This document shows positions 1,345 through 16,747 of a stretch of 17,071 nucleotides of DNA, in pieces. Numbering within the stretch: the stretch's first letter is position 1; every line of letters begins with the position of its first letter. The notes under the pieces are model-generated. The model had not been told where the DNA came from. It saw only the letters and a program-made list of their open reading frames with translations, and ran no database searches. This DNA comes from Breznakia blatticola (GTDB taxonomy: Bacteria; Bacillota_I; Bacilli_A; Erysipelotrichales; Erysipelotrichaceae): NCBI RefSeq assembly GCF_004365815.1, contig NZ_SODD01000049.1:1-17071 (forward strand), given 5' to 3'. Both the position numbers and the translations under genes were made by a program.

Positions 1345-1364
1345 ACTTAATCACCTCATTTTCA

Positions 1365-1393
1365 ATTGTAGTATGAAAAGAAGATAAAGTAAA
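1365..1393 (-). promoter_or_regulatory. Candidate sigma-A promoter of the C-S lyase gene
   Basis: On the - strand: TTTACT (1393-1388), 17-nt spacer, TACAAT (1370-1365), about 20 nt upstream of the SD/ATG. Confidence 0.5.
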
Positions 1394-1400
1394 ATTATGT

Positions 1401-1416
1401 ACCTGTACGTTTAGGT
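1401..1416. promoter_or_regulatory. Degenerate copy of the tre operator in the patB/treR divergent intergenic region
   Basis: ACCTGTACGTTTAGGT matches 13 of 16 positions of the exact operator ACCTGTACGGACAGGT found twice at the treP promoter. It retains the outer ACCTGT...AGGT arms. Confidence 0.5.
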
Positions 1417-1452
1417 GTTTATTTATGAATTGTTTTCCGATACAATATAGGT

Positions 1453-2160
1453 ATGACAAAATATCAAAGAATCTATCAAGAACTGTTAGATAAAATTAAA
1501 ACAAAAGAATATAAAACGGGCGATTATTTACCAAGTGAAAACGAATTGATGAAAACATATGGTTCATCACGTGATACGATCCGTAAAGCTTTGCAACTGC
1601 TCTTACAAAATGGATACATTCAAAAAGTAGTTGGTAAAGGATCGGTTGTTCTTGATAGTGAAAGAATTGCTTTTCCGGTTTCTGGAATTTCAAGTTTTAA
1701 AGAATTAAAAGAATCAATGGATGGAACAATTGAAACAATTGTTGAAGAATTTACGGTTGTACCAGCTGATGATAAATTAAAAGATGAGCTGCATATGGAT
1801 GATGGTAATGTATATATTATTGAGCGTGTGCGTTCAATCAATGGTGAAAAAATCATCTTAGATAAAGATTATTTAAATGGAAATATTATCCAAGGACTGA
1901 CAAAACAACATGCACAAGATTCTATTTATGAATATATTGAAAATGAACTGAACTTAAACATCAGTTTTTCACGCAAGGAAATTACGGTCATTCCAGCCAC
2001 AAAACATGATAAAGAAGTACTTGATATGTTGGATTATGATCTACTTGTTTGTGTAAAAAGTTATTCGTATTTGGAAGATGCAACATTATTTGAATATACG
2101 ATTTCAAAACATCGACCGGATAAATTTAGATTTGTTGATTTTGCTAGAAGAAGCCAGTAA
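1453..2160 (+). CDS. treR: GntR/HutC-family transcriptional repressor, trehalose operon repressor TreR
   Basis: 235 aa. N-terminal GntR winged helix (PSENELMKTYGSSRDTIRKALQLLLQNGYIQKVVGKGSVV) plus a UTRA-type C-terminal effector domain, the same architecture as B. subtilis TreR. It shares a locus with treP/treC and palindromic operators. Confidence 0.85.
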   Translation: MTKYQRIYQELLDKIKTKEYKTGDYLPSENELMKTYGSSRDTIRKALQLLLQNGYIQKVVGKGSVVLDSERIAFPVSGISSFKELKESMDGTIETIVEEFTVVPADDKLKDELHMDDGNVYIIERVRSINGEKIILDKDYLNGNIIQGLTKQHAQDSIYEYIENELNLNISFSRKEITVIPATKHDKEVLDMLDYDLLVCVKSYSYLEDATLFEYTISKHRPDKFRFVDFARRSQ

Positions 2161-2187
2161 ACTACTCTTTTTGGGTAGTTTTCTTTT
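2159..2187 (+). terminator. Rho-independent terminator after treR
   Basis: Stem AAACTACTC (2159-2167) / GGGTAGTTT (2173-2181) including one G-U pair, loop TTTTT, followed by the T-rich tail TCTTTT. Confidence 0.55.
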
Positions 2188-2205
2188 ATGTAAAATGAAA
2201 ACGTG

Positions 2206-2234
2206 TTGATTCTATAGTAGCTAGCAGCTATAGT
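2206..2234 (+). promoter_or_regulatory. Sigma-A promoter of the HAD gene pair with an embedded palindrome
   Basis: TTGATT (2206-2211), 17 nt, TATAGT (2229-2234). The spacer plus the -10 form the near-palindrome CTATAG-TA-GCTAGC-AG-CTATAG (2212-2233), which differs from the tre operator. Confidence 0.6.
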
Positions 2235-2265
2235 AAAACTATATACTTTCGTGTAAAGGCAAAGG

Positions 2266-3096
2266 ATGGAAAAGAAAATGAAGAATAACCCAAATAATAT
2301 TAAATTGGTGGCAGTGGATGTAGATGGTACATTTGTTCGTACGGATTATACGTATGATAAACCAAGATTTCTTGCCATTATGGAGCGTATGAAAAAAGCA
2401 GGATGTGAATTTGTTGTTGCTAGTGGTAACCAATACTATCAACTACGTTCTCTATTTCCTGAATTTAAAGATACGATTAGCTATATTGCTGAAAATGGAG
2501 CACTTGTAAAAGCAAAAGATACAATCCTATTTACGACAGATATTCCTAAAGATGTAATTCATAAGACACTAGAAATTTGTAATCAATATCCAGAAATAAA
2601 AAATACAATGTGTGGACTTGAAAGTGCATATTGTGAAAGAGGAAAAGTAAGTGAGAAATTCTTTAAACTAACCAATCATTACTATCACAAACTACAATGG
2701 GTAGATGACTTTGCTGATGTAAATGATACGATTTTAAAATTTGCACCAATGGTACCCGTAGAAAAAACAGATAAGTATATGAAAATATTTGAAGAACAAC
2801 TTGATGGAGGATTAGTTCCAACATCGAGTGGTCATGGATCCATTGATTTAATCGTTCCAAATTGTCATAAAGCTTCGGGTATTGAACGACTCGCAAAACT
2901 ATGGAACATTACACCTGAACAGTGTGTTTCCTTTGGTGATGGTGGAAATGATATAGAAATGTTAATGTACTGTGGTCGTAGTTATGCTATGGATAATGCA
3001 CCTGATCATGTAAAAGCATGCGCAAAAAATGTATGTCCTTCAAATAATGAAGATGGTGTACTAGTAATATTAGATCAACTATTTCCAGTTGAATAA
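2266..3096 (+). CDS. Cof-type HAD-IIB sugar-phosphate phosphatase
   Basis: 276 aa. HAD motif I is VAVDVDGTF, motif IV is FGDGGNDIEM, and a cap domain sits between them. The alternative start ATG 2278 (MKNNPN...) is possible because the SD spacing for 2266 is very short. Confidence 0.8.
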   Translation: MEKKMKNNPNNIKLVAVDVDGTFVRTDYTYDKPRFLAIMERMKKAGCEFVVASGNQYYQLRSLFPEFKDTISYIAENGALVKAKDTILFTTDIPKDVIHKTLEICNQYPEIKNTMCGLESAYCERGKVSEKFFKLTNHYYHKLQWVDDFADVNDTILKFAPMVPVEKTDKYMKIFEEQLDGGLVPTSSGHGSIDLIVPNCHKASGIERLAKLWNITPEQCVSFGDGGNDIEMLMYCGRSYAMDNAPDHVKACAKNVCPSNNEDGVLVILDQLFPVE

Positions 3097-3111
3097 GAAT
3101 GAGAAAAGACA

Positions 3112-3900
3112 ATGAAAGATATAAAAATAATATTCTTTGATATTGATGGTACGTTAATTGATATGCAAAGAAAGCAAATTTCAGAACATATGTTGTATAC
3201 ATTACGTAAATTAAAAGAAAATGGAATTGTAATTTGCATTGCAACAGGAAGAAGTCCAATTTCTTTACCACACTTTGAAGGTATTGATTTTGATGCATAT
3301 TTAACGTTTAATGGTTCGTATTGTTATAACGAAAAGGAAACGATATTTAAAAACCCAATCGATCCAAATGATGTAAAGGTTATCGTCGATAATGCAAAAA
3401 ATATTGCAAGACCTGTTTCTGTTTCGACGATTCAAAAAAACATTGCAAATGGAAAAGATGATGATTTAGTTGAGTACTTTTCTTTTGCTCACCAAGAAGT
3501 GTATGTATCAACTAATTTTGATGAAGAAATTCATAATGAAGATGTATATCAGTTGATGGTATCTGCTACACCAAAAGAGTATGATGTGCTTATGAAGCAT
3601 ACAAATCATACAAAAATTACTGCATGGTGGAATCGTGCAGTTGATATTATTCCAGCAAATGGTGGTAAAGGAAAAGGAATCGAAGAAATACTAGCTTATT
3701 ATGGATTTGATGCATCCCAAGCGATGGCTTTTGGTGATGGAAACAATGATATTGAGATGCTACAAACCGTTGGTTGGGGACTTGCCATGGAAAATGCATC
3801 TGATGATCTAAAAGAGATTGCAAATGAAATCATCGGACATGTTTCTAAGGAAGGAATTTATCACTACTGTGTGAAACAGGGATTCATTGAAGCAAAATAA
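3112..3900 (+). CDS. Cof-type HAD-IIB sugar-phosphate phosphatase (second paralogue-like copy)
   Basis: 262 aa. Motif I is IFFDIDGTL, with ATGRS, and motif IV is FGDGNNDIEM. It lies 15 nt downstream of the previous HAD gene. Confidence 0.8.
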   Translation: MKDIKIIFFDIDGTLIDMQRKQISEHMLYTLRKLKENGIVICIATGRSPISLPHFEGIDFDAYLTFNGSYCYNEKETIFKNPIDPNDVKVIVDNAKNIARPVSVSTIQKNIANGKDDDLVEYFSFAHQEVYVSTNFDEEIHNEDVYQLMVSATPKEYDVLMKHTNHTKITAWWNRAVDIIPANGGKGKGIEEILAYYGFDASQAMAFGDGNNDIEMLQTVGWGLAMENASDDLKEIANEIIGHVSKEGIYHYCVKQGFIEAK

Positions 3901-3907
3901 ATAAAAT

Positions 3908-3967
3908 AACTAGCATTAACTATGTGTTACACGATACAAAGTGATACATAATATGCTAGTTTTTTTA
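3908..3967 (+). terminator. Terminator-like long hairpin after the HAD pair
   Basis: 9-bp stem AACTAGCAT (3908-3916) / ATGCTAGTT (3953-3961) followed by a T7 run (3960-3966). The loop is large (36 nt) and contains small internal repeats. Confidence 0.5.
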
Positions 3968-3995
3968 TATACAACAAAAAAAGTTTCAATTCATA

Positions 3996-4024
3996 TTGAC
4001 ATACCTGTACGGACAGGTTATAGT
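3996..4024 (+). promoter_or_regulatory. Near-consensus sigma-A promoter of treP-treC
   Basis: TTGACA (3996-4001), exactly 17 nt, TATAGT (4019-4024). An A-rich tract lies upstream (3975-3983). Confidence 0.8.
4003..4018. promoter_or_regulatory. tre operator O1 (candidate TreR binding site) filling the promoter spacer
   Basis: ACCTGTACGGACAGGT has inverted arms ACCTGT/ACAGGT. It lies entirely between the -35 and -10 hexamers. Confidence 0.7.
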
Positions 4025-4038
4025 GAAGATAGAAATAA

Positions 4039-4054
4039 ACCTGTACGGACAGGT
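4039..4054. promoter_or_regulatory. tre operator O2 (exact repeat of O1) in the treP leader
   Basis: Identical 16-mer ACCTGTACGGACAGGT, 36 bp downstream of O1. It sits between the predicted TSS and the SD (GAAAGGA) of treP. Confidence 0.7.
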
Positions 4055-4072
4055 TGAAAGGATGAGAATAAT

Positions 4073-5527
4073 ATGAAAGATTTTACAAAGGATGCAACTT
4101 CTTTATTAGCGTATGTTGGTGGAAAAGAAAACATCAAAGCAGTTAGTCACTGTATTACAAGAATGCGTTTTGTTTTAGTTGATGAAAGTAAAGCCGATAT
4201 TAAGAGAATTGAAGCATTGCCATCAGCAAAGGGAACATTTACCCAATCAGGACAATTCCAAGTCATTATTGGAAATGATGTAGCAGACTTCTATAAAAGT
4301 TTTGTTGAAGTAAGTGGTATTGAGGGTGTAGATAAAAATGCCGCTAAAGAAGCTGCAAAAGACAATCAAAGTCCAATTCAAAAATTCATGAGCAATATCG
4401 CCGAAATATTTGCTCCATTAATTCCAGCACTTGTATGTGGTGGTTTGATCTTAGGATTTAGAAATGTAATTGGTGATATTCAATTTGGTGGACAAACCAT
4501 TGTCGAAGGAAGTCAATTTTGGGCTGGTGTACATAGTTTTCTTTGGTTAATTGGAGAAGCGATTTTCCACTTCTTACCAGTAGGGATTACATGGTCAATC
4601 ACAAAGAAAATGGGAACTACGCAAATTCTAGGAATTGTTTTAGGAATTTGTTTAGTATCTCCTCAATTATTAAATGCATATGCAGTAAGTGGAGCTACCG
4701 ATATTCCATTCTGGGATTTTGGTTTTGCCAAAATTGATATGATTGGATATCAAGCACAAGTTATACCAGCAATACTAGCCGGATTTACTTTAGTCTACTT
4801 AGAAAGATTCTGGAAAAAAGTGATTCCAAGTGTTGTACAACTTGTAGTTGTTCCATTCTTAGCACTTGTTCCTGCAGTATTAATTGCACACGTAGTATTA
4901 GGTCCAATTGGATGGGCAATGGGTGATGCAATTTCGAATGTTGTATATACAGGGTTAACATCTCAATTTGGTTGGTTATTTGCTGGAGTCTTTGGCTTCT
5001 TGTATGCACCACTAGTTATTACTGGATTACACCACATGACAAATGCAATTGACTTACAGTTAATGGATAAATATAGTGGAACGATTTTATGGCCAATGAT
5101 TGCCCTATCAAATATTGCTCAAGGGTCTGCAGTACTTGCAATGGTTTTCTTACAACGCAAAAACGATGCAGCAAAACAAATTGCAATTCCATCAATGATT
5201 TCTTGTTACTTAGGAGTTACTGAACCAGCAATGTTTGGGGTAAACATTAAACATGGATTCCCATTCATTTCAGCAATGATTGGTTCAAGTATTGCAGCTA
5301 TGTTATCTGTAGCAACAGGAGTTATGGCAAACTCAATTGGAGTTGGAGGAATCCCAGGATTCTTAGCAATTCAAGTACAACACTGGCCAATGTTCTTTGT
5401 TTGCATGGCAGTCGCAATTGTAGTTCCATTTGGACTAACATATGTGATTGGACTTAAAAAATTGCCAGAAAGCGATCGCGTAAATCACGAAGAAGTAAAC
5501 TTAGATGAAATAGCAGAATTGGCATAA
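4073..5527 (+). CDS. treP: PTS trehalose-specific EIIBC component
   Basis: 484 aa. N-terminal EIIB domain with the phospho-cysteine motif AVSHCITRMRF, followed by a multi-TM EIIC of the glucose/sucrose superfamily. There is no EIIA domain. It is followed by phosphotrehalase after 14 nt. Confidence 0.85.
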   Translation: MKDFTKDATSLLAYVGGKENIKAVSHCITRMRFVLVDESKADIKRIEALPSAKGTFTQSGQFQVIIGNDVADFYKSFVEVSGIEGVDKNAAKEAAKDNQSPIQKFMSNIAEIFAPLIPALVCGGLILGFRNVIGDIQFGGQTIVEGSQFWAGVHSFLWLIGEAIFHFLPVGITWSITKKMGTTQILGIVLGICLVSPQLLNAYAVSGATDIPFWDFGFAKIDMIGYQAQVIPAILAGFTLVYLERFWKKVIPSVVQLVVVPFLALVPAVLIAHVVLGPIGWAMGDAISNVVYTGLTSQFGWLFAGVFGFLYAPLVITGLHHMTNAIDLQLMDKYSGTILWPMIALSNIAQGSAVLAMVFLQRKNDAAKQIAIPSMISCYLGVTEPAMFGVNIKHGFPFISAMIGSSIAAMLSVATGVMANSIGVGGIPGFLAIQVQHWPMFFVCMAVAIVVPFGLTYVIGLKKLPESDRVNHEEVNLDEIAELA

Positions 5528-5541
5528 AGATAGGAGGTTCT

Positions 5542-7194
5542 ATGCATAACTATGGGAATAAAGTCATTTATCAAATCTATCCTAAATCATATAAAGATAG
5601 TAATGGTGATGGAATTGGTGACTTTCAGGGAATTATCGAAAAACTAGACTATCTTGAACAATTAGGAATTGACTATATTTGGTTAAATGCATGTTTTGTA
5701 TCGCCACAAAACGACAATGGTTATGATGTACAAGATTATTACAATATTGATCCTGTATATGGAAGTATGGAAGATTTTGATGCATTAGTAAAAGAAGCAA
5801 AAGCGCATCACATTGAAATTATGTTGGATATGGTATTTAATCATACCTCAACCGCACATGAATGGTTTCAAAAGGCATTGCAGGGTGACAAGAAATATAA
5901 AGATTATTATATTTGGCGAAAAGGTAAGGAAGATGGTACACCACCAACCAATTGGGTGAGTAAGTTTGGTGGAAATACCTGGGAATATGTAGAACGTTAT
6001 GATGCATATTACTTACACTTATATGATGTAAGTCAAGCAGACTTAAACTGGGATAATCCAGAAGTACGTGATGAGATGGCAAAGATTGTCAATTTTTGGA
6101 TGGATAAAGGAGTTAGTGGATTTCGCTTTGATGTTGTCAACTTGATTTCTAAACCAGAAGTACTCGAAGATGATTATCAAGGAGATGGACGCCGTTTCTA
6201 TACAGATGGTCCACATGTACATGAGTATTTACGTCAACTGAACAATGCATCTTTTGGAAAAATCGATGCACTTACGGTAGGTGAAATGTCATCAACGTCA
6301 CTAGAAAACTGTGTAAAGTATGCAGGAGAAAATCGTCAAGAATTAAGCAGTGTCTTTAACTTTCACCATTTGAAGGTCGATTATAAAAACAAAAACAAAT
6401 GGGATATTCAAGAATTTGATTTCCAAGAGTTAAAAGATTTACTTGTTACATGGCAAGTAGGAATGCAAGAGTATGATGCATGGAATGCTTTATTCTGGTG
6501 CAATCATGATCAACCTCGTGTGGTATCACGTTTTGGAAATGATCGTACTTATCCAAAAGAAAGTGCCAAGATGTTAGCAACCGCAATACATATGTTGCGT
6601 GGAATTCCTTACATTTATCAAGGTGAAGAAATTGGAATGACTAATGCGTACTTTACCGATATTAAAGAATACCGTGATGTTGAATCATTAAACTACTACA
6701 AGATTCTTAAACAAACAGGAATGAGTGAAGCAAAGATTATGAAAATATTGCAAGAGCGTTCACGTGATAATGCAAGAACGCCAATGCAATGGGATGATTC
6801 GATACATGCTGGATTTAGTGAAGCTACTCCTTGGATTCAAGAAATAAAGAATTATAAAGAGATCAATGTCAAACACGCATTAGCTGACAAAGATTCCGTA
6901 TTTTATCACTATAAAAAGTTGATTGAATTACGAAAAACATATCCAGTGATTCAACAAGGAAGCTTTGAAGTCATTGCTAAAGATCATCCAGAACTATTTG
7001 TATATAAACGAATTCTTGGTGATACAGAAGTACTAGTTATTAATAATTTCTATGGTAAACAAGTCGATTATAAAATCGAACAAGCACGAAACTATGAACT
7101 ACTATTATCAAATTATGGAGAACGTCCATATACAGATAATATGCAATTACAACCATATGAATCGCTTATTTATATTACAAAACCCCAAGACTAA
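5542..7194 (+). CDS. treC: GH13 alpha,alpha-phosphotrehalase (trehalose-6-phosphate hydrolase)
   Basis: 550 aa. N-terminus VIYQIYPKSYKDSNGDGIGDFQGIIEKLDYLEQLGIDYIWLN. GH13 catalytic signatures are GFRFDVVN, VGEM and NHDQPR. SD AGGAGG. Substrate assignment comes from the treR/treP context; an oligo-1,6-glucosidase cannot be excluded from sequence alone. Confidence 0.8.
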   Translation: MHNYGNKVIYQIYPKSYKDSNGDGIGDFQGIIEKLDYLEQLGIDYIWLNACFVSPQNDNGYDVQDYYNIDPVYGSMEDFDALVKEAKAHHIEIMLDMVFNHTSTAHEWFQKALQGDKKYKDYYIWRKGKEDGTPPTNWVSKFGGNTWEYVERYDAYYLHLYDVSQADLNWDNPEVRDEMAKIVNFWMDKGVSGFRFDVVNLISKPEVLEDDYQGDGRRFYTDGPHVHEYLRQLNNASFGKIDALTVGEMSSTSLENCVKYAGENRQELSSVFNFHHLKVDYKNKNKWDIQEFDFQELKDLLVTWQVGMQEYDAWNALFWCNHDQPRVVSRFGNDRTYPKESAKMLATAIHMLRGIPYIYQGEEIGMTNAYFTDIKEYRDVESLNYYKILKQTGMSEAKIMKILQERSRDNARTPMQWDDSIHAGFSEATPWIQEIKNYKEINVKHALADKDSVFYHYKKLIELRKTYPVIQQGSFEVIAKDHPELFVYKRILGDTEVLVINNFYGKQVDYKIEQARNYELLLSNYGERPYTDNMQLQPYESLIYITKPQD

Positions 7195-7210
7195 CATCTT
7201 GGGGTTTACT
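7179..7210. terminator. Strong hairpin terminator between convergent treC and the DUF3783-like gene
   Basis: 11-bp perfect stem AAACCCCAAGA (7180-7190) / TCTTGGGGTTT (7197-7207). The treC stop codon (7192-7194) sits in the loop, and a T-rich tail follows. Confidence 0.7.
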
Positions 7211-7213
7211 TTC

Positions 7214-7771
7214 TTATAGTGCTTCGTTTCCGCTAAAGTAAGGTAATAATGAAGCAATGGCTTGATCAATCTCATCAGCTGAACTTTGTTTCTTTAATAC
7301 ATCATATGCTTCAACAACCGCTTTTTGAAAAACAGGACGAACATCTTCAGGAACGGTATCTGGTTTTACTTTCATAGCTAGTTGTAATAACATATTCAAT
7401 CGATTCCGTTTCAGAAAGTAATGATGTTCTTCATCGAGTTCTACGAATAAATCAATTGCTTTCCATTTTTGATTGTGTTCAGTTAACATCGCTTTTCGAT
7501 CAATCATCACATCATGTTCTTTTAATATTTTAGCAACCTCAGAAATAATTGAAGGATCTACAACTGAGAAAACAATAACTTCGTGTGCAAAAGGCTCAAT
7601 GTTTTCTTTTGGATTTGCTTCATATCCTTCATAACCAAATAGATAACCTACAGTTTCATGTAAGTTCTCAGGATCTAAGACCAAAATATCAAAGTCTTCT
7701 TTTAAAGCATCAATGATTTTAGCTTCTTTCTCACGATTTTTATTTGTATATAATAAAATGGTACCTAACAT
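7214..7771 (-). CDS. DUF3783-like protein with a C-terminal helical extension (function unknown)
   Basis: 185 aa. The pattern ILLY...IIDALK...VGYLFGYEG...EVIVFSVV...IDRKAMLTEHNQKWKAIDLFVELDEEH resembles, from memory, the DUF3783 family of Firmicutes. SD AAGAGGA. Confidence 0.5.
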   Translation of the reverse strand: MLGTILLYTNKNREKEAKIIDALKEDFDILVLDPENLHETVGYLFGYEGYEANPKENIEPFAHEVIVFSVVDPSIISEVAKILKEHDVMIDRKAMLTEHNQKWKAIDLFVELDEEHHYFLKRNRLNMLLQLAMKVKPDTVPEDVRPVFQKAVVEAYDVLKKQSSADEIDQAIASLLPYFSGNEAL

Positions 7772-7842
7772 AACAATTCCTCTTCTTTTCTTACCATTCT
7801 AATATAGCACAAATTCATACAAACAACCTATGAATATAATCC

Positions 7843-7871
7843 TTTACAGGATGACATATTGTTGATACAAT
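7843..7871 (+). promoter_or_regulatory. Sigma-A promoter (extended -10) of the riboswitch-ATPase transcript
   Basis: TTTACA (7843-7848), 17 nt, TG-n-TACAAT (7863-7871). The predicted TSS is about 7878, just before the riboswitch P1. Confidence 0.65.
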
Positions 7872-7879
7872 AGCAAAGT

Positions 7880-7967
7880 AATAAGGGAGTAGTCGCACAA
7901 ATCTGTGTGATTTAGTCAACATCACGAAACGAAAGTTTCTGGCTGAATTTTAAAGACAAGACTTATT
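7880..7967 (+). promoter_or_regulatory. yybP-ykoY (Mn2+) riboswitch aptamer
   Basis: P1 is AAUAAG (7880-7885) pairing with CUUAUU (7962-7967). Conserved cores are GGGAGUAG (7885-7892), GUCAACAU (7915-7922) and ACAAGAC (7956-7962). Hairpins are UCGCACA-AAUC-UGUGUGA (7893-7910) and GAAAC-GAAA-GUUUC (7926-7939). This layout parallels the published L. lactis yybP-ykoY element (AAAGGGGAGUAGC...UUGACAUACGAAAGUAUGU...AGCAAGACCUUUCC). Confidence 0.8.
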
Positions 7968-7997
7968 GAAAGTTGTTTTCAATGAGTCTTTTTTATT
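7959..7997 (+). terminator. Riboswitch expression platform: intrinsic terminator competing with P1
   Basis: Stem AGACTTATTGAAA (7959-7971) / TTTCAATGAGTCT (7977-7989) with one G-U pair, loop GTTGT, then a T-run (7989-7995). The 5' arm contains the P1 3' strand, so P1 formation excludes the terminator (ON-switch logic). Confidence 0.75.
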
Positions 7998-8018
7998 ACT
8001 AGACTCCAGGAGGATTGC

Positions 8019-10622
8019 ATGAAACAATATACAAATTACAATTTGAAAGATGTGTTTGAGGAATTTGAAACCTCACGGGATGGATTAAAAGATAGTGAAG
8101 CAAGTGTCCGTTTAGAACGTGATGGGAAAAATGAACTAGAAGCAGAAGCACAGGAAAGTGTTTTAAGTATTTTCTTATCACAGTTTAAAGACTTACTCGT
8201 TATCGTCTTAATTGTGGCAAGTATGATTTCCATTGCTGTAGGTGAATTAGAAAGTGCGATTGTTATATTAATCGTAATTACACTAAATTCAATTTTAGGT
8301 ACTGTACAAACCGTGCGTGCACAAAAATCACTTGATTCCTTAAAGCAATTATCAACACCGTTTACCCGTGTTATGCGTGAAGGTATTGTAAAAGAAGTAC
8401 CTTCAAGTGAACTAGTTGTTGGAGATATCGTACTTGTAGAAGCAGGTGATGTCATTAGTGCAGATGGACGTGTTGTTGATTCCTTTACACTACAAGTTAA
8501 TGAAAGTTCATTAACTGGTGAGAGCGAAAGTGTTGAGAAATTCCCAGATCAAATTATTGAAGAAGGAATTCAAATCGGTGATCAACGCAATATGGTATTC
8601 TCAAGTAGTCTAGTTACTTATGGACGAGGAAAATATGTAGTTACAAGTACTGGAATGAAAACCGAAATTGGTCGAATTGCCCAAATGATGAATGCCACAA
8701 AAGAAAAACGTACACCATTGCAATTAAGCTTAGATGACTTTTCAAAGAAATTATCCTTTGTGATTATCGCTATTTGTTTGGTTGTACTTGGATTAAATAT
8801 GTTACGTGGAGGAAATCTACTTGATTCCTTTATGTTTGCGGTTGCTCTAGCTGTTGCAGCAATTCCTGAAGCATTAGCTTCTATTGTAACTATCGTATTA
8901 TCAATTAGTACACAAAAAATGGTTAAAGAACACGCGATTATGAAAAACATTAACGCAGTGGAAACCCTAGGTTGTGTATCCATTATTTGTTCGGATAAAA
9001 CAGGAACCTTAACTCAAAATAAAATGAGTGTTGAAAGTATTTATCTGAACCGTCAATTGTATTTAAAAAATGCAGAATATAAAGACAATCGCGATATTCG
9101 CTTACTTACTATGATTGGAATTTTATGTAGTGATGCAACTATCAACGGAGAACAACGAATTGGAGATCCAACAGAACTTGCATTTGTGGACCTTGGACGT
9201 TTCTTTGAGATGAATGAAAGTGAATTACGCGAGAAGTATTACCGTGTCAAAGAATTACCATTCGACTCGGTTCGTAAATTGATGACTACCGTATGTAATG
9301 TACATGATAAAAAAGTAATGTATGTAAAAGGTGCACCGGATGAATTATTACGTGTATGTACAAAGTATTACTTTGAAGGTAAAGAGTTAGATATGACAGA
9401 TGAAGTTCGTGAAGAAATTCTACTTCAAAATGGACTATTTGCTACACAAGGACAACGTGTTCTAGCTTTCGCTTATAAAGAGTTTAATCAAGATGAACTA
9501 ACTTTAGAAGATGAAAGAGATTTAGTCTTCACTGGTCTAATTTCAATGATTGATCCACCTCGTGAAGAAAGTGCACAAGCAGTTGCTGATTGTTATACTG
9601 CAGGTATTAAACCAATTATGATTACTGGTGACCATAAGGTTACTGCAACAGCAATCGCGAAACGTATTGGTATTTATAAAGATGGAGACTTAGCATTAGA
9701 AGGTCGTGAACTAGCAGTGATGAATGATGATCAACTTCACGAAATTATTGAAAAAGTAAGTGTATATGCGCGTGTTGCTCCTGAGCATAAAATCCGTATT
9801 GTTGAAGCATGGCAAAGTCGTGGTCACAATGTGGCAATGACAGGAGATGGTGTAAATGATGCTCCTGCATTAAAACAAGCAGATATTGGTATTGCTATGG
9901 GAATTACAGGAACAGAAGTAAGTAAAGATGCAGCAAGTATGATTCTTACAGATGATAACTTCTCAACAATTGTAAAAGCGATTGTGACAGGACGTAATGT
10001 ATATGACAATATTAAAAATGCAATTGCATACCTATTAAGTGGAAACTTCTCAGGAATCTTAGCCGTACTATACTGTACACTATTTGCTTTACCACTTCCA
10101 TTTATGCCAGTACACTTATTATTTATTAACTTGGTGACGGATTCACTGCCAGCTATTGCGATTGGTATGGAACCATCAAATGCATATTTACTATATGAAA
10201 AACCAAGAAGTAAAAAAGCAAGTATCTTAAATAAAGCAACCCTTCAACAAATTGGTTACGAAGGATTACTAATTGCCATTGCAACACTTGTTGGATTCCA
10301 CTTAGGACTTCAACAAAGTACAGGGCATGCAATGACATATGCTTTTGCTGTATTATGTATGGCACGTTTATTCCATGGATTTAACTGTCGTGGAAAACAG
10401 TCAATATTCAAACTTGGCTTAACAACAAACAAATATTCTATTTACGCATTTATTGTTGGATATATTCTTATCATGGGAATCATGATAATTCCAGCATTCC
10501 ATGGTGTATTTAAAATTGCAGATATCTCAGCTATGGATATTGCAATAATTAATGCCTTAGCATTTGCACCAACGATTGTCGTACAAATTACGAAAATCAT
10601 TATGGGACGTAACGAAAAATAA
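8019..10622 (+). CDS. P2-type cation-transporting ATPase (Ca2+/Mn2+ exporter class)
   Basis: 867 aa. Motifs: TGES (SLTGESESV), phosphorylation site CSDKTGTLTQN, KGAPD, MITGDH, TGDGVNDAPALK. SERCA-like ion-site motifs are AAIPEAL (TM4) and NLVTDSLPA (TM6). SD AGGAGG. The upstream Mn2+ riboswitch implies a Mn2+-responsive role. Confidence 0.9.
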   Translation: MKQYTNYNLKDVFEEFETSRDGLKDSEASVRLERDGKNELEAEAQESVLSIFLSQFKDLLVIVLIVASMISIAVGELESAIVILIVITLNSILGTVQTVRAQKSLDSLKQLSTPFTRVMREGIVKEVPSSELVVGDIVLVEAGDVISADGRVVDSFTLQVNESSLTGESESVEKFPDQIIEEGIQIGDQRNMVFSSSLVTYGRGKYVVTSTGMKTEIGRIAQMMNATKEKRTPLQLSLDDFSKKLSFVIIAICLVVLGLNMLRGGNLLDSFMFAVALAVAAIPEALASIVTIVLSISTQKMVKEHAIMKNINAVETLGCVSIICSDKTGTLTQNKMSVESIYLNRQLYLKNAEYKDNRDIRLLTMIGILCSDATINGEQRIGDPTELAFVDLGRFFEMNESELREKYYRVKELPFDSVRKLMTTVCNVHDKKVMYVKGAPDELLRVCTKYYFEGKELDMTDEVREEILLQNGLFATQGQRVLAFAYKEFNQDELTLEDERDLVFTGLISMIDPPREESAQAVADCYTAGIKPIMITGDHKVTATAIAKRIGIYKDGDLALEGRELAVMNDDQLHEIIEKVSVYARVAPEHKIRIVEAWQSRGHNVAMTGDGVNDAPALKQADIGIAMGITGTEVSKDAASMILTDDNFSTIVKAIVTGRNVYDNIKNAIAYLLSGNFSGILAVLYCTLFALPLPFMPVHLLFINLVTDSLPAIAIGMEPSNAYLLYEKPRSKKASILNKATLQQIGYEGLLIAIATLVGFHLGLQQSTGHAMTYAFAVLCMARLFHGFNCRGKQSIFKLGLTTNKYSIYAFIVGYILIMGIMIIPAFHGVFKIADISAMDIAIINALAFAPTIVVQITKIIMGRNEK

Positions 10623-10623
10623 C

Positions 10624-10657
10624 AAAAGGTTCGCTTCAATTTGAGGCGAACTTTTTG
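10624..10657. terminator. Bidirectional rho-independent terminator (ATPase on +, toxin cassette on -)
   Basis: 9-bp GC-rich stem GTTCGCTTC (10629-10637) / GAGGCGAAC (10643-10651) with one G-U pair and loop AATTT. It is flanked by AAAA (10624-10627) and TTTTT (10652-10656). Confidence 0.75.
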
Positions 10658-10709
10658 TTTGAGTATTAGTGTTAACAAGAGGTTTGAGATGGAAATCTAT
10701 ACTTCTTAA

Positions 10710-11327
10710 TTACACGTTTGTTTTTTGTTTGTAAAATTCAAATCCAATCCAATTATTGTCATCAATAATGTTCTTTATTTTTTGGGAGACATAAATTCCA
10801 ACAAAGTCTTTTTTGCATCTAAAAATGTCATAATCTTTGCATACTTTTTCATCAAGTACGATATCTTGAGGCAGAAAACTGTATACATTATATTTTTCAT
10901 TGTAGGTATATTTTGAAAGGTTCATATCATATGCTTCAATAAAATTCATTATATACATAACGACATAATTATTATTTACTTTTCCAGTAACTACATCTAT
11001 TAACTTAATTGGTAAATACTGGAGTCCTTTAATTTTATTGTCATTAAATTTTTCCATGACTTTCTTATGGATAATAGGCCATCTATTAACATTTATCAAA
11101 TATTCATTCTCTAAGTCAGATGCTTTTGAGCTATAGTAAAATTCAACCTCTGGCCAAGTGTCTGACAATTTCTCAAATGACTTGTAAATAATATTACTAA
11201 AAAAACCTACTTTCACATCTTTGTAGACAATTTCACCCAAATTGGATTTTTCTGCATATATCGTATTTGTATTACTTTTTATTGAATCATCGATTCTATC
11301 CATATCCCATGTTAATCTATAAAACAT
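10710..11327 (-). CDS. Candidate cognate immunity protein, Imm11/DUF1629-like
   Basis: 205 aa, 18 nt downstream of the toxin gene with SD AGGAGG. The C-terminal pattern KGLQYLPIKLID...NYVVMYIMNFIEAYDMNLSKY...DYDIFRCKKDFVGIYVSQKIKNIIDDNNWIGFEF resembles, from memory, Imm11/DUF1629 immunity proteins of polymorphic toxin systems. Confidence 0.6.
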   Translation of the reverse strand: MFYRLTWDMDRIDDSIKSNTNTIYAEKSNLGEIVYKDVKVGFFSNIIYKSFEKLSDTWPEVEFYYSSKASDLENEYLINVNRWPIIHKKVMEKFNDNKIKGLQYLPIKLIDVVTGKVNNNYVVMYIMNFIEAYDMNLSKYTYNEKYNVYSFLPQDIVLDEKVCKDYDIFRCKKDFVGIYVSQKIKNIIDDNNWIGFEFYKQKTNV

Positions 11328-11345
11328 ACTAAGTCCTCCTATTTA

Positions 11346-12764
11346 TTATTTTAAGTTTTTCCAATATTCAGAATATAACATATCCGGATTGTTTATAATT
11401 GGAACCTTTACATTTTGATCAAATAAATCTAAAAACATTTCTACATTTCCATTTGAAAGTGAATCAGCCTTGATCATTTCATTTAGTACAAAATCATGAT
11501 ATGCATTTGGATGTCTTCCTTGATGAGGTAATAATTTCTTATTCCACTCTGCATCTAAGTCTAATCCATACTTATTAGAAATATCTTTGAATTGATCAAT
11601 ATATTTCTTGTTTTTATTTGTGGCAAAATGATGTATTTGATCTGGTTTTACTTTTTTGTTATCTATGATTTCATCAAACTCTAAACTTTGTGTATTTGTT
11701 TTTTCTTCAGGGACAATCTTAGTGTTTTGTTTTTGTATTTTCGCACTATAGCCAGACCAGTACATTCCAATACCAATGTTTGCCAGTCCGCTTAATAATT
11801 GTGCTCTTCTTTGAAGTATCTGTGTATCTGTTAGTTTAATACCAGTATTATAGTCAATACCTTCTCTTGCTTCCCATGCCGCTCGCGACAATGGATCAAT
11901 ATCTTGTACTTCCCCAAAGACTGCTTCTTTTCCATATACTTTTGCCATTTTTTTGAGCCATTCTTCATAGGCTTCGTTAAATTGTAAATCTTCTTGATCC
12001 CAATATGGCGGATTATTTAACCACATATCTCTTTTTTGTCCATATATATCTACAGTAACATAAGATTTCGCTTTTAATGCTTCGTTAAAAGCGGTTTCTT
12101 GAATCTGTAGTTCTTGCTCCAATAATGTAGTATTGTTTTTTCTTTTTTCCGCATATTCTGTAATTTTATCTGCCCAACCTAAATCAAGTCCTTTAATATT
12201 AAACTGTTTTGTCTTTTCATCATAGCAGTTACCACTCTCGACAATTTCAAGTCCTTTTTCAACTAATGAAATAAGATGTTTAACATCATTGAATATTATT
12301 GGAGATGAACTATCAAACCAATATAAATTATCTAGTCTACGTTTAAGTATTCTTTTTATTCGTTCCATTGCTTGAATGTTTATTTCCAAGTACCAATCAT
12401 AATATGGCAACTCTTCCTTTTTCTGTTCCATCGTTGTAATAAGATATTTGACTTGACGTATTTCTTCATCTAATTTATTCTCAAGTACATCATTGGTTGA
12501 GACCTCTGACTCAAATATCTGTATATATCTATAATGGGCATCCATTAAAGAGTCACTTACTAATCGTAGTCCTTTAGTAAGTGGTAAATAGACACGTTCA
12601 AAATATTGTTTACTGTTTTTATAAGCAATTCCTGATAACCAAGATTGTAAATATGATTGAATTGTAGCATCAATAGTATCGGCATAATTCCGGTAGGAAA
12701 TAGCTAATCGATATGTATATTCTGCTTGTTCTCTTACTTCTCCTAAATACATATTAATAGACAT
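11346..12764 (-). CDS. LXG-domain polymorphic toxin (T7SSb-type effector) with C-terminal AHH/HNH-EndoVII-like nuclease module
   Basis: The N-terminal ~200 aa show the LXG-domain pattern (YLGEVREQAE...LSGIAYKNSKQYFERVYLPLTKGLRLVSDSLMDAHYRYIQIFESEV...LENKLDEEI...LDNLYWFDSSS). The C-terminal 96 aa carry IHH (11628-11636) and LPHQGRHPNAYH. Start moved from the track's TTG (12779) to ATG 12764 (MSINMYLGEV), which has GGAG 9 nt upstream. Confidence 0.8.
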   Translation of the reverse strand: MSINMYLGEVREQAEYTYRLAISYRNYADTIDATIQSYLQSWLSGIAYKNSKQYFERVYLPLTKGLRLVSDSLMDAHYRYIQIFESEVSTNDVLENKLDEEIRQVKYLITTMEQKKEELPYYDWYLEINIQAMERIKRILKRRLDNLYWFDSSSPIIFNDVKHLISLVEKGLEIVESGNCYDEKTKQFNIKGLDLGWADKITEYAEKRKNNTTLLEQELQIQETAFNEALKAKSYVTVDIYGQKRDMWLNNPPYWDQEDLQFNEAYEEWLKKMAKVYGKEAVFGEVQDIDPLSRAAWEAREGIDYNTGIKLTDTQILQRRAQLLSGLANIGIGMYWSGYSAKIQKQNTKIVPEEKTNTQSLEFDEIIDNKKVKPDQIHHFATNKNKKYIDQFKDISNKYGLDLDAEWNKKLLPHQGRHPNAYHDFVLNEMIKADSLSNGNVEMFLDLFDQNVKVPIINNPDMLYSEYWKNLK

Positions 12765-13092
12765 AGTGAGTATCTCCAATATCTACAGAGTTTCTTTGTT
12801 TTTCATATATACTTTCTTCTTTTTGAAGTAGCTTTTTCTTTTCTGCTTTTAGGTTTTCTTGATAGTCATCTACTTTATTAAGACTATCTTTTTGAGCACA
12901 CATAATCTCATTTACTAAATCATCCACTTCTTTGTTGTAGTCACTAGATAGCAACTCATCAAAAAAGTGCTGTTGTTGCTGATAAATTTTCGATAAATCT
13001 TCTTTGTTCTCAATGAGTATTTTCTCTTGAATATCTAATTCATTACATGAAGAATGTATAAAGTGAAGCTGATTTAATATATCTTCATTCAT
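12754..13092 (-). CDS. Small coiled-coil LXG-associated helper, Lap2/DUF3958-like
   Basis: 112 aa, predicted all-helical and rich in Glu/Lys/Gln (QQQQHFFDELLSS...ENLKAEKKKLLQKEESIYEKQRN). Its ATG overlaps the upstream stop (ATGA at 13089-13092) and its 3' end overlaps the toxin start by 11 nt. The position immediately 5' of an LXG gene matches the Lap1-Lap2-LXG arrangement described for Streptococcus intermedius. Confidence 0.55.
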   Translation of the reverse strand: MNEDILNQLHFIHSSCNELDIQEKILIENKEDLSKIYQQQQHFFDELLSSDYNKEVDDLVNEIMCAQKDSLNKVDDYQENLKAEKKKLLQKEESIYEKQRNSVDIGDTHYVY

Positions 13093-13391
13093 TTATTCAC
13101 CTTGCTGCTAAGTTCTTTGTTCAATCTATATTTGAATTCCGTATCAAGATCATCAAATTTTTTTCCAAGAGTTGAAATTTTCTTACTATCCTTTTTAAGT
13201 GATTCAGCTAAACGATATACACTTTTTGCGGTTCGTTTGATACTATCAATTGCTTCTATATTCCCCTTTACGGTCGTTTTTTTAGCTAGTACACTTTCAT
13301 CAATTGTTCCTTGTTCTTTTCTTGCAACATGTACAAGGTCACTTGCATGTCTATTAGCTATTTCCTTGTTGCTTTTAATTACATTTGTCAT
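13089..13391 (-). CDS. Small helical LXG-associated helper, Lap1/DUF3130 (TIGR04197)-like
   Basis: 100 aa from ATG 13391 (MTNVIKSNKEIANRHASDL...KISTLGKKFDDLDTEF). SD-like GGGGAAAG lies upstream. The track's longer ORF (start 13490) would begin upstream of the operon promoter and inside the hcp terminator, so it is rejected. Confidence 0.55.
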   Translation of the reverse strand: MTNVIKSNKEIANRHASDLVHVARKEQGTIDESVLAKKTTVKGNIEAIDSIKRTAKSVYRLAESLKKDSKKISTLGKKFDDLDTEFKYRLNKELSSKVNK

Positions 13392-13416
13392 TTCTTTCCC
13401 CATTTTTCTTTGCATA

Positions 13417-13445
13417 ATTATATCAATATTGAGCACTCGTATCAA
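13417..13445 (-). promoter_or_regulatory. Near-consensus sigma-A promoter of the lap1-lap2-LXG-immunity operon
   Basis: On the - strand: TTGATA (13445-13440), exactly 17 nt, TATAAT (13422-13417). The predicted TSS is about 13410, upstream of the ATG at 13391. Confidence 0.7.
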
Positions 13446-13466: not shown

Positions 13467-13493
13467 AAAAAGATATCTCAGATGAGACATCTT
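13467..13493 (-). terminator. Rho-independent terminator of hcp
   Basis: On the - strand: AAGATGTCTCA / TGAGATATCTT inverted repeat (13493-13470, one G-U pair) followed by TTTTTCTATCTTTT. It lies 22 nt after the hcp stop. Confidence 0.65.
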
Positions 13494-13514
13494 TGGTTCA
13501 GTAGGTTATTTGAA

Positions 13515-15053
13515 TTATCCGAATGTTGTGATATCTTCAACTACACTTTGAATACCGCTAATTCCATAGTGTTCAACTAAATAACTAGCTGTAGTTTCAC
13601 TTAAGTAACTTGGTAAACTAGGACCAACTTTTATATCTTTAATTCCTAAATGTAATAAAGACAGTAAGACAATAATTGCTTTTTGTTCGTACCATGCGAT
13701 ATTAAATGAAATTGGCAATTCATTGATGTCATTAAGTTTGAAGATTTCTTGCAGTTTCATTGCAATTACAACCCATGAATAAGAGTCGTTACATTGCCCT
13801 GCATCAAGTACGCGCGGTACTCCATTAATATCACCAAGATTTAGTTTGTTGTAACGGTATTTGGCACAACCTGAAGTAAGAATAATTGTATCATCTTTTA
13901 ATGTTCTAGCAAAATCAGCATAGTATGTACGATCACGTTTACGACCATCACAACCACTCATAACGATAAATTTGCGAATACTTCCATTTTTAATGTTTTC
14001 TACAACAGTATCTGCTAATGCAAGAACTTGATTATGGGCAAATCCACCGACGATACTTCCTGATTCAATTTCTGTAGGTGAACTGCAAGATTGAGCTTGT
14101 TTAATAATTTCACTAAAGTCTTTTGTTCCATCTGGATTTACAGGTATACGTTTGAATCCAGGATAGTCACAGTTACCAGTAGAGTATAAACGATCTACAT
14201 ATCCTGCATTTGCTTTTGGTGGCACAATACAGTTAGTAGTAAATAAGATAGGACCATTAAATGTTTCAAATTCAGTAGTTTGTTTCCACCATGCATTTCC
14301 ATAGTTTCCTTTTAAGTGTGAATATTGTTTAAATTTCGGATAGTAATGTGCTGGAAGCATTTCACTATGCGTATAAATATCGATACCACTATCTTTACTT
14401 TGTTCAAGAAGTTGCGCTAAATCAGCTAAATCGTGTCCAGAAATAAGTATTCCTGGTCGAGTTCCCACACCAATGTTTACATTAGTTATTTCTGGATTTC
14501 CATAAGATGAAGTATTTGCAGTATCAAGGAATGCCATTACTTTTACTCCATAAGCCCCTGTTTCATCAACAACACGTAAACATGTTTCAAGATCATGCAT
14601 TTCATTGAAACCAGCTAATGTTTTTACCATGAAATTATGAATATCTTGATCTTCATATCCTAAATGAGTTGCATGTGAATGATATGCAGCCATTCCCATT
14701 AAACCACCCATAATTAGTGATTTTAGTGCATTGATATCTTCGTTTTCTTCATAGAAAGCAACTACATCATTACGTTTTGTGTACGTTTTTGCTTCTTCAA
14801 TTTGGTGACGAATGTTTTCCTTGTTAAAGTTTGCATTTGTAATAAGTTTGAATAATGAATCCATAATGAAACGTTTTTCTTCATTGTGTCCTTCTGTATC
14901 ATTTTCAATTTGTTTACTTAATACTTTTAGGTATTCTTTTAATTCATCAAGTAAGTTAGCTAGTTCACTATCTTTACCACACACTCCTTGAATGGTACAA
15001 GCTTTGTTACCTGCAGCTTCCTCACATTGATTACAAAACATTTTTGTGTTCAT
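13515..15053 (-). CDS. hcp: Hybrid-cluster protein / hydroxylamine reductase
   Basis: 512 aa. The N-terminal Cys motif [23 protein letters not shown] is typical of Hcp. Conserved internal blocks include NAWWKQ, TNCIVPP, MSGCDG and [18 protein letters not shown]. Confidence 0.9.
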
Positions 15054-15084
15054 ATATCGGTTCTCCTTTGTTATCTACAGGATT

Positions 15085-15127
15085 ACTATATCGATAATGA
15101 ATCGAAAAGAATGTGATAGTTGCAACA
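15085..15127 (-). promoter_or_regulatory. Candidate hcp promoter with class-II-positioned Crp/Fnr-type site
   Basis: -10 TATAGT (15090-15085 on -) with no recognisable -35. The 16-mer TGTGATAGTTGCAACA (15112-15127; TGTGA-N6-CAACA, containing the perfect palindrome GTTGCAAC) lies 21 nt upstream of the -10. That places it at about -41.5 if the TSS is 7 nt after the -10. Confidence 0.4.
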
Positions 15128-15129
15128 CT

Positions 15130-15762
15130 TCAGAAATATTTTGGATTTAATGTGAATACATCTTTTTGAATCGAGAATATGTTTTCAGTTTGCATTGTTT
15201 TTAACTCTCTAGACAAACTACTTCGATTCACACTTAAGTATTCTGCAAGTTGTGTTTTGTTGTAGGGGATACGGACTGTATACGATTTGTCTTTTAGATG
15301 ATAGAAGTTTAACATCTCAAAGATACGTTCTCGAATGGTTGTCTTATTGAGAATTTCTAGTTTGTGTGTAAGAAAAACATTCTTTGTTGAAAGTATCGTA
15401 AGTAGATTTCTAAGTATCGGCTTAGGAAAATCAAAAACATCATCACGTGAAAAGAAAATAACATGTAGTGAACTTTTTGCAGTGATTTCAAAAGGTGTGA
15501 TATTCTCATTTCCTAGAGCTACACTTTCTGCAAATAATTCGCCTTCACCTAAGACAGTGACAAGTTTCTTATTTCCGTGAATATCATAACTACTGATTTC
15601 CATCGTACCACTTACAATAAGATACATATCATGAATCGTATCACCAATGGAAAAAATTTGTTCGTTACGAGCAAAGTGTTTATGACTGGCTTGTTGTAAT
15701 ACTTGATCAATGATATTTTGATCGACATTTGAAAACATCGAGATGGTTGTATGATTTTGCAT
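15130..15762 (-). CDS. Crp/Fnr-family transcriptional regulator (HcpR-like by context)
   Basis: 210 aa from ATG 15762 (MQNHTTISMF...), which has SD AAAGGAG 6 nt upstream. N-terminal cNMP-binding-like beta-barrel (FSIGDTIHDMYLIVSGTMEIS...GEGELFAE) and C-terminal HTH (KTQLAEYLSVNRSSLSRELKTM). The track start (15792) adds MCYICQKEFF without an SD. A possible extended -10 is TGCTACATT (15789-15781). Confidence 0.8.
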   Translation of the reverse strand: MQNHTTISMFSNVDQNIIDQVLQQASHKHFARNEQIFSIGDTIHDMYLIVSGTMEISSYDIHGNKKLVTVLGEGELFAESVALGNENITPFEITAKSSLHVIFFSRDDVFDFPKPILRNLLTILSTKNVFLTHKLEILNKTTIRERIFEMLNFYHLKDKSYTVRIPYNKTQLAEYLSVNRSSLSRELKTMQTENIFSIQKDVFTLNPKYF

Positions 15763-15874
15763 AAAGAACTCCTTTTGACAAATGTAGCACATTGAAAAGG
15801 TAAAGGATGTTGTTATTCAAACAAAAAAATAAATAGAATAATAGTTAGTAAAAGGTATATTTACGAGAAGCAAG

Positions 15875-15902
15875 TTGTATATTTGATAAATGTTGATAGA
15901 AT
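15875..15902 (+). promoter_or_regulatory. Candidate promoter of the orphan membrane-protein gene
   Basis: TTGTAT (15875-15880), 16 nt, TG-n-TAGAAT (15894-15902). Confidence 0.5.
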
Positions 15903-15931
15903 ATTTATGTTTTAAGAAAGGTAAAGGAATA

Positions 15932-16747
15932 ATGAAAATATTAAACATAGTAGTAACGATAGGAAGCAGTTTATTAATTACATTGCTTATTACGTATTTT
16001 GCAGTAAATCTGAAGAAAAAACAAAAACTTAAGTTTGATATATTTATGGATATTTTTTCTAAAGTATTTATATCGGTAATCATGATTTTAGTAGCAGTTG
16101 AGGCAAATACCATATCAGAACAACAATACGAAAGAGATATGAAAGAGAGTTCTCCAATATTTGAAATAACAAGAAACAATGATTTTGCACAAAAAGGTTT
16201 TGATGAAACATATAAACTTACAAATAGTAAAGGAATTGCACAATATGTAGATTTTTCACGCATTGATACAGTTGAGTTCTATTATCATGACATGCCAGTT
16301 CATATGACTATAATAAATGCGAATGAGGAAAACATTAAATATGAAAGTAAAGAAAACGAATGGTACTATATACCAAAAACGCAGAATATATCAACAAAAA
16401 GCATGAAAGAATTATTTGAAAGAAAAGTAAAAGAAAAAACTGATGAAAACACAGATGTATATTTTGAAAGATATTATAAAGTTTCATTTGTAGATTATAA
16501 AAATGAAAAATTCACATTCTATTTTATAGAAAGTGATGATGAGTATATCTTAAAATATACCGATGAAGAATCATATAACAATAAAATTAGCTTTCTGAAT
16601 AATGAAAAGAAATGGGGAGGAGGAATGATGTTTAACAATAAAAATGAAAATGTGGAAAGTAGAGTTGATCAAATGCTGGTAAACATAGAAAAAGGGTATG
16701 ATAATATGAAGTATATTGAGGAAAATTTTAGTGGTGTTAGTTACTAA
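15932..16747 (+). CDS. Hypothetical 2-TM membrane protein with Asn/Lys/Glu/Tyr-rich extracytoplasmic or soluble domain (no family recognised)
   Basis: 271 aa from ATG 15932 (MKILNIVVTIGSSLLITLLITYFAV), with SD AAAGGTAAAGGA. The second hydrophobic helix is FSKVFISVIMILVAVEA, and the remainder is predicted soluble. The track start 15890 lies inside the predicted promoter. The gene is very AT-rich. Confidence 0.6.
   Translation: MKILNIVVTIGSSLLITLLITYFAVNLKKKQKLKFDIFMDIFSKVFISVIMILVAVEANTISEQQYERDMKESSPIFEITRNNDFAQKGFDETYKLTNSKGIAQYVDFSRIDTVEFYYHDMPVHMTIINANEENIKYESKENEWYYIPKTQNISTKSMKELFERKVKEKTDENTDVYFERYYKVSFVDYKNEKFTFYFIESDDEYILKYTDEESYNNKISFLNNEKKWGGGMMFNNKNENVESRVDQMLVNIEKGYDNMKYIEENFSGVSY

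Follow-up and report, generated by a model that had tools for sequence, protein, structure and literature searches.

A compact cassette of four genes lies on the - strand, at 10710-13445, of the 17,071-bp stretch of Breznakia blatticola (Erysipelotrichaceae) DNA analysed here; this stretch, referred to below as the window, is an entire contig. The genes encode, in order, a Lap1-like protein, a Lap2-like protein, a toxin and an immunity protein, and together they very probably constitute an antibacterial LXG polymorphic-toxin effector module that relies for its export on a secretion system of type VIIb (T7SSb). The original prediction, made from the DNA letters alone, had proposed two Lap-like helpers, an LXG-domain toxin and a candidate immunity gene. 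When the four proteins were searched with profile hidden Markov models, the LXG, TIGR04197, DUF3958 and Imm11 families were all returned, LXG and DUF3958 with sub-threshold scores, and all four proposed identities were borne out in that form.

The C-terminus of the toxin matched the AHH family (PF14412) with E = 5.2e-12 and 46.2 bits, against a cut-off of 22.3. Scored by the AHH signature of Zhang et al. (2012; PMC3482391), which comprises [AG]HH, N, H, H and Y, the domain contains I377-H378-H379, N383 and P413-HQGRHPNAYH-423. Residues H378, H379, H414, H418, N420, Y422 and H423 are nearly invariant among 48 sequences, and the structure of the domain is predicted with per-residue confidence (pLDDT) of 84-98. 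The toxin is therefore described here as ending in a predicted AHH DNase, homology being the ground for assigning nuclease activity to it. The 205-aa (amino acid) product of the gene directly 3' of the toxin matched Imm11 (PF07791/DUF1629) with E = 1.5e-11 and 44.4 bits, against 22.1, over profile positions 42-193 of 194, and would by the same kind of argument be an Imm11 immunity protein. Such a pairing has precedents. In Firmicutes, Tox-AHH domains are listed as carried by LXG toxins of type VII secretion systems (T7SS) and neutralised by Imm11, which is associated with AHH, HNH or SHH toxins and encoded immediately downstream of them (Zhang et al., 2012; PMC3482391); neutralisation of AHH by Imm11 has been shown experimentally in Myxococcus (PMC12077181). 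The suggestion in the original prediction that this combination of helpers, toxin and immunity might be uncharacterised is not supported. Listeria booriae has the same architecture, annotated as such, and Cytobacillus an abridged form of it, and LXG-borne Tox-AHH with Imm11 had already been catalogued in 2012 (PMC3482391); the combination is therefore not new at the family level.

The N-terminus of the toxin gave an LXG profile match (PF04740) with E = 1.9e-5 and 25.1 bits, and the precomputed Pfam list assigns PF04740 to this protein. The LxG motif is L43-S44-G45, in which G45 is invariant in an alignment with the LXG toxins of Breznakia pachnodae, Cytobacillus and Listeria. The region is predicted to form a helical bundle (residues 3-177, with helices at 3-39, 46-87, 91-118 and 120-177), and its top fold match in the Protein Data Bank (PDB) is the LXG domain of TelA (8GMH_B; 222 aligned columns, probability 1.00), a match that we regard as supportive, not decisive. 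At NCBI, an entry with 100% identity to the toxin bears the name 'WXG superfamily protein probably secreted by type VII secretion system', and the Lap1-like product is likewise named there as a type VII secretion protein. This product matched TIGR04197 (E = 6.9e-12; 45.8 bits, the cut-off being 26), the 'SACOL2603' family of T7SS effectors, which is equivalent to DUF3130/Lap1. An FxxxD motif, F79-D-D-L-D83 (FDDLD), is found near the C-terminal end of its second helix; B. pachnodae has FDAVD and Listeria YAQKD in this place, and the Asp is invariant in the four sequences aligned. In Streptococcus intermedius, FxxxD is dispensable for complex formation and essential for export of the LXG toxin (Klein et al., 2022; PMC9600955). 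The hairpin-turn motif DxxTxxxGN is partly kept, as T39-T-V-K-G43-N44 (TxxxGN, residues 39-44), its Asp being replaced by Ala. The second gene matched DUF3958 (PF13125) with E = 4e-5 and 24.3 bits over profile positions 9-105 of 107; in an alignment of five members, this protein included, four matched DUF3958, the best with E = 3.8e-25. Its predicted structure consists of two long helices, 2-48 and 54-103 (pLDDT 87), and is thus a helical hairpin, the top PDB fold match of which is LapD2 (7UH4; template-modelling (TM) score 0.62-0.64, E = 0.24).

Between the LXG and AHH domains lies a central module (residues 215-370), and searching Pfam with it gave no match, to a pre-toxin family or to any other. 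A full HMMER search with these residues found 14 relatives among 1.84 billion representative proteins. The relatives hold the module at the same position in the protein; those that are named belong to Enterococcus or Carnobacterium, and several bear the annotation 'T7SS effector LXG polymorphic toxin'. Seven of the 12 proteins in the alignment, the window toxin included, matched LXG (best E = 1.3e-11), and the C-termini of the relatives are different nucleases (LHH, WHH, EndoU and colicin-DNase). Near-invariant residues of the module are W248, P252, D259, N263, Y266, E298, G302 and T307-G308, the last pair resembling the 'pre-toxin TG' domains of polymorphic toxins, to which the Pfam search gave no match. 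The module could be a dedicated cell-entry domain for the nuclease cargo, such a delivery role being a guess on our part.

Exchange of toxin ends is also seen within the genus. A cassette of B. pachnodae that encodes an LXG-HNH toxin (P0003, at locus L001) has the same gene order and overlaps as that of B. blatticola. The two Lap1 proteins are 53% identical and the two Lap2 proteins 36%; the toxins are 51-54% identical from residue 1 to ~345, and over residues 1-405 of the window toxin the identity is 51%, fading past ~345. The B. pachnodae toxin ends in an HNH endonuclease, not AHH, and its immunity gene (150 aa) is unrelated. The break in homology between the two toxins falls at about residues 345-360, and the junction lies near residues 345-370. 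Exchangeable toxin and immunity ends on a conserved trafficking scaffold are the signature of a polymorphic toxin, and the comparison suggests that the toxin end and the immunity gene have been exchanged together by recombination, the LXG domain and central module being common to both species.

In its own genome, the B. pachnodae cassette (L001, with neighbours at 1061-9142 and 12175-21488) follows immediately on the gene for a tyrosine integrase and a block encoding a MobL relaxase and a type IV secretion system (T4SS) coupling protein; phage-like genes (DUF5131, Lar, SNase and a DNA methyltransferase) come after it. An integrative element probably carries it as cargo. At another locus (L004 6196-8939; Logan SRR31341437), an LXG gene of the B. 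pachnodae type is split into pieces of 55 aa and 352 aa; its C-terminus is short and of another kind, and a DDE transposase comes after it. This copy is a decaying cassette.

Several observations weigh against assignment of the cassette to T7SSb-dependent LXG modules, and they concern both the family matches and the exporter. As regards the former, the LXG score falls below the Pfam gathering threshold (25.1 against 26.5 bits), and that of the Lap2-like protein lies just under the gathering score of DUF3958 (24.3 against 26.3 bits). The Pfam DUF3130 model gave no match to the Lap1-like protein, while it matches the Listeria counterpart at 4.5e-26. Fold matches are weakly discriminating for long helical proteins: the E-values are 0.24 for Lap2 and 0.049 for the LXG region, the latter with a TM score of only 0.39 on the target, 8GMH_B. 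PDB sequence searches with the Lap1, Lap2 and LXG profiles returned only non-significant or coiled-coil noise matches, 8GMH (E = 0.36) and 7UH4 (E = 3.4) among the former. Finally, the first position of the 'AHH' motif is Ile in the window toxin, not Ala or Gly; it is Asn or Met in the nearest relatives, and the Ile is a minor variant.

As regards the exporter, none of EssC, EssB/YukC, EsaB/YukD, EssA, EsaA and EsxA is encoded in the window, and a machine encoded elsewhere has to be assumed. The other open reading frames (ORFs) of at least 90 aa outside longer genes, with the exception of one of 285 aa, were placed by Pfam in unrelated families (aminotransferase, GntR, two HAD hydrolases, PTS EIIBC, alpha-glucosidase, DUF3783, P-type ATPase, Hcp and Crp), and the intergenic gaps are too short for a WXG100 gene, so that the absence of core genes from the 17 kb noted in the original prediction stands. 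Within the window, the cassette therefore counts as an effector module, not as a T7SS locus. The weight that had been placed on its distance from a T7SS, on the other hand, was misplaced, since such distance is usual for LXG cassettes: in Bacillus subtilis NCIB3610, six chromosomal LXG toxins, three of them on prophage-derived elements, depend on a T7SS that is encoded in a separate, seven-gene yukE operon (PMC8321402), and the L. booriae cassette likewise has no T7SS core genes within 10 kb. In Streptococcus rupicaprae, a distant LXG relative does adjoin EssC (1488 aa), YukC, YukD and EssA. The open literature searched has no account of a T7SS in Erysipelotrichales. As to the scope of the comparisons, the scan of a genome collection with the LXG alignment returned five loci, the window's own locus not among them although the pattern used matches its peptide GIAYKNSKQY, so that B. 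blatticola is masked in that collection or absent from it; the protein search lists the best 120 of 8000 word-sharing candidates; a viral scan gave nothing and a metagenome scan one 1-kb contig. There is no longer version of the contig: what Logan assembled from the sequencing run of the strain is the same contig, of 16.9 kb.

The lack of core genes on the contig and the lack of a published T7SS in the order would both also fit an orphan cassette, that is, a recently acquired remnant in a genome that has no functional T7SS and does not export the toxin; it might persist as an addiction-like toxin-immunity pair, or the immunity gene might guard against the toxins of neighbours. The genomic setting points the same way in part. 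The guanine-plus-cytosine (GC) content of the cassette, 29.5%, is slightly below the 32.9% of the flanks, and that of the immunity gene is 26.5%. In the two closest relatives examined (L013 and L014), the crp-hcp pair that precedes the cassette (13515-15792 of the window) is kept, with Hcp 89% and 78% identical, and the LXG cassette is absent downstream of hcp; the gene in that place encodes DUF438/hemerythrin/PAS in one relative and a peptidase M19 in the second, and the site is therefore variable. To this can be added the integrase, MobL relaxase and T4SS coupling-protein genes that adjoin the B. pachnodae homologue. The cassette is accordingly accessory and was probably acquired horizontally. 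Around it in the contig, neither flanking direct repeats nor an annotated integrase or transposase was found, and we therefore claim no defined mobile element here. Nevertheless, the orphan explanation seems to us decidedly unlikely. All four genes are intact, with coupling and ribosome-binding sites preserved, unlike the split gene beside a transposase that a truly decaying copy presents. FxxxD, LxG and both helper genes have been kept between two Breznakia species at only 36-54% identity, and this retention of export-specific features argues for continued selection on export.

If export is under selection, the exporter might still be non-canonical, a variant T7SS (types T7SSc-j) or another route in place of classical T7SSb. 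Variant types, seven of them found only in Bacillota, have been described with LXG proteins among their candidate substrates (Garrett et al., 2024; PMC11217815), and the type possessed by Erysipelotrichales is undocumented in the literature searched. The Lap1/Lap2 (DUF3130/DUF3958) helpers have, however, so far been tied experimentally to T7SSb (PMC9600955), and the nearest relatives of the LXG domain and central module are found in Enterococcus, Carnobacterium, Listeria and Streptococcus, the one locus examined there having a classical T7SSb core; a non-canonical exporter is thus highly improbable. In a broader form, it is very unlikely that B. blatticola, and perhaps Erysipelotrichales as a whole, lacks classical T7SSb and that the cassette is served by an undescribed or variant machine or has spread as a mobile addiction module. 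If the latter were true, the cassette would be a self-sufficient toxin-immunity addiction module that moves between genera on mobile elements.

The four genes could also be read as an intracellular module, either toxin-antitoxin or anti-phage (abortive infection), that has no more than a resemblance to a secreted toxin. HNH-type nucleases are frequent in defence systems, and some LXG pairs, YeeF/YezG for example, have been listed as toxin-antitoxin systems of B. subtilis (PMC6562991, PMC7033585). Against this, none of the four proteins gave a meaningful match to a PADLOC defence family, such a module would have no need of two dedicated helper genes for secretion or of an LXG domain, and the B. 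subtilis LXG pairs act between cells through the T7SS (PMC8321402). We find this explanation hardly credible.

For the preferred reading, export of an antibacterial toxin through T7SSb, a mechanism can be modelled by analogy on TelC and TelD of S. intermedius. By homology, we infer complex formation, export, DNase activity and immunity. The cassette's own promoter would drive lap1, lap2, toxin and immunity genes that are translationally coupled, and in the producing cell Imm11 would bind and block the C-terminal AHH DNase. The helical hairpins of Lap1 and Lap2 and the LXG domain at the N-terminus of the toxin would pack together as a rod-shaped pre-secretion complex. In this complex, FxxxD of Lap1 and the adjoining LxG motif may form the signal for export that is read by EssC, an ATPase whose gene would lie elsewhere in the genome. 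Once exported, the toxin would enter Gram-positive neighbours without the cognate Imm11 and degrade their DNA.

The layout of the cassette (Table 1) is that of a probable single operon with its own promoter and terminators. The promoter boxes, TTGATA at 13445-13440 and TATAAT at 13422-13417, agree with the consensus at 11 of 12 positions, as the near-consensus promoter of the original prediction required, and form the top site of the region. Taken as a class, promoter-like sites show no enrichment (15 found against 20.8 expected). The predicted tight coupling of four - strand genes is likewise present, and the lengths given for the first, second and fourth genes are correct. Genes 1 and 2 are joined by a 4-nt ATGA overlap, the toxin gene overlaps gene 2 by 11 nt, and the immunity gene starts 18 nt past the toxin stop, with AGGAGG in the gap, 7 nt upstream of its ATG. 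Upstream, the terminator-like hairpin of hcp may insulate the cassette from hcp read-through. Downstream, the hairpin at 10621-10659 is common to the cassette and a convergent P-type ATPase gene; the minimum free energy is -19.5 kcal/mol over a 95-nt stretch (z = -4.43), and none of 200 shuffles was as stable. Rfam families were not found in the window.

Table 1. Features of the LXG cassette and its borders, in window coordinates.
Feature	Position	Strand	Basis
Terminator-like hairpin of the upstream hcp gene	13469-13494	-	11-pair stem then T-run
Predicted sigma-70-type promoter, TTGATA-17 nt-TATAAT, TG extended -10	13417-13445	-	Sequence match
lap1-like gene, 100 aa	13089-13391	-	TIGR04197 profile
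lap2-like gene, 112 aa	12754-13092	-	DUF3958-type helical hairpin
Toxin gene, 472 aa (ATG 12764, stop 11346)	11346-12764	-	LXG and AHH profiles
Toxin residues 1-210, LXG trafficking domain	12135-12764	-	LXG profile, LxG motif, fold match
Toxin residues 215-370, conserved central (pre-toxin) module, no Pfam family	11655-12122	-	Homologue search
Toxin residues 371-472 and stop codon, predicted Tox-AHH nuclease domain (HNH/EndoVII, beta-beta-alpha-metal)	11346-11654	-	AHH profile
Putative Imm11 (DUF1629) immunity gene, 205 aa	10710-11327	-	Imm11 profile
Hairpin terminator, GUUCGC/GCGAAC core, U-rich tail	10621-10659		Folding against shuffles

A start that would give gene 1 133 aa, offered by mechanical ORF calling, was rejected because the hcp terminator hairpin and the promoter would fall inside the extended gene. 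The 100-aa start agrees with the NCBI call, and the B. pachnodae orthologue aligns from Met1. Within the cassette, a 21-nt inverted repeat of 90% complementarity has its arms 630 nt apart, at 12695-12715 in the 5' part of the toxin gene and 13346-13366 in the 5' part of lap1; it may be due to chance.

Elsewhere in the window, the + strand at 1453-7194 encodes a GntR/UTRA regulator, two Cof-type HAD phosphatases, PTS EIIBC and a GH13 alpha-glucosidase, a sugar-utilisation cluster that is unrelated to the cassette. The 285-aa ORF (15890-16747, +) has an N-terminal hydrophobic segment and lies where the contig is richest in AT (GC 25.8%). It matched nothing in Pfam or PADLOC, and a 148-aa ORF that overlaps it on the - strand is probably spurious.

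The cassette is already correctly annotated in public databases, where the toxin and Lap1 are named, and is ordinary for its kind. It documents an LXG/Lap effector module in a member of the Erysipelotrichaceae from the insect (cockroach) gut and, with B. pachnodae, illustrates cleanly, in two species, the swapping of toxin ends on a conserved scaffold of LXG domain and central module. Its practical value is small, and no open question about T7SSb is changed or tested by it; it would matter only if the genome had no T7SSb, which is unlikely.

Beyond the genus, a close match in organisation is the cassette of L. booriae (L003), in which genes for DUF3130 (94 aa), a small helical protein of 122 aa, an LXG-AHH toxin (471 aa) and Imm11 (188 aa) follow one another in the order seen in the window. 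In Cytobacillus sp. Hz8 (L005), the shorter version has three genes, for DUF3958, LXG-AHH (485 aa) and Imm11. The AHH domains of the two are 55-57% identical to that of B. blatticola (Cytobacillus, 55%); for the LXG domains, identity is only 20-29%. The Imm11 proteins are 22-24% identical to that of the window, which has a 17-residue insertion near its N-terminus, and the Breznakia central module is absent from the Listeria and Cytobacillus toxins. Downstream of LXG-AHH/Imm11 in L. booriae (L003 12376-13019) lie an orphan 66-aa fragment of an LHH toxin and an immunity gene of the SUKH family; spare toxin ends are usually kept in reserve in this way.

Also among the nearest known systems are TelC-LapC1-LapC2 and TelD-LapD1-LapD2 of S. 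intermedius (PMC9600955), which share its gene order: lap1 (DUF3130/TIGR04197), lap2 (DUF3958), LXG toxin and immunity gene. The helical hairpin of Lap2 and the long helical bundle of LXG in S. intermedius are both predicted for the window proteins, with very low identity (14-20%) to the solved proteins in the fold alignments. There are differences. The toxin end is an AHH nuclease and not the toxin domain of TelC or TelD, the immunity protein is Imm11, the window cassette has no DUF4176 gene, and its Lap1 keeps only TxxxGN, without the Asp of the S. intermedius motif DxxTxxxGN.

The LXG toxins YeeF, YobL, YokI, YqcG, YwqJ as well as YxiD of B. subtilis (Kobayashi, 2021; PMC8321402) are built like the window toxin, with an LXG domain, a variable centre and a toxin end, and have the immunity gene directly downstream, as here. 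In contrast, their operons carry no WXG100-type helper genes and use a single WXG100 protein, YukE, and their toxin domains differ. The AHH-Imm11 pairs of Myxococcus xanthus (PMC12077181) belong to the same two families, PF14412 and PF07791, again with the immunity gene immediately downstream of the toxin; these toxins of a Gram-negative organism are delivered by the type VI secretion system or by SitA outer-membrane exchange and have no LXG/Lap module.

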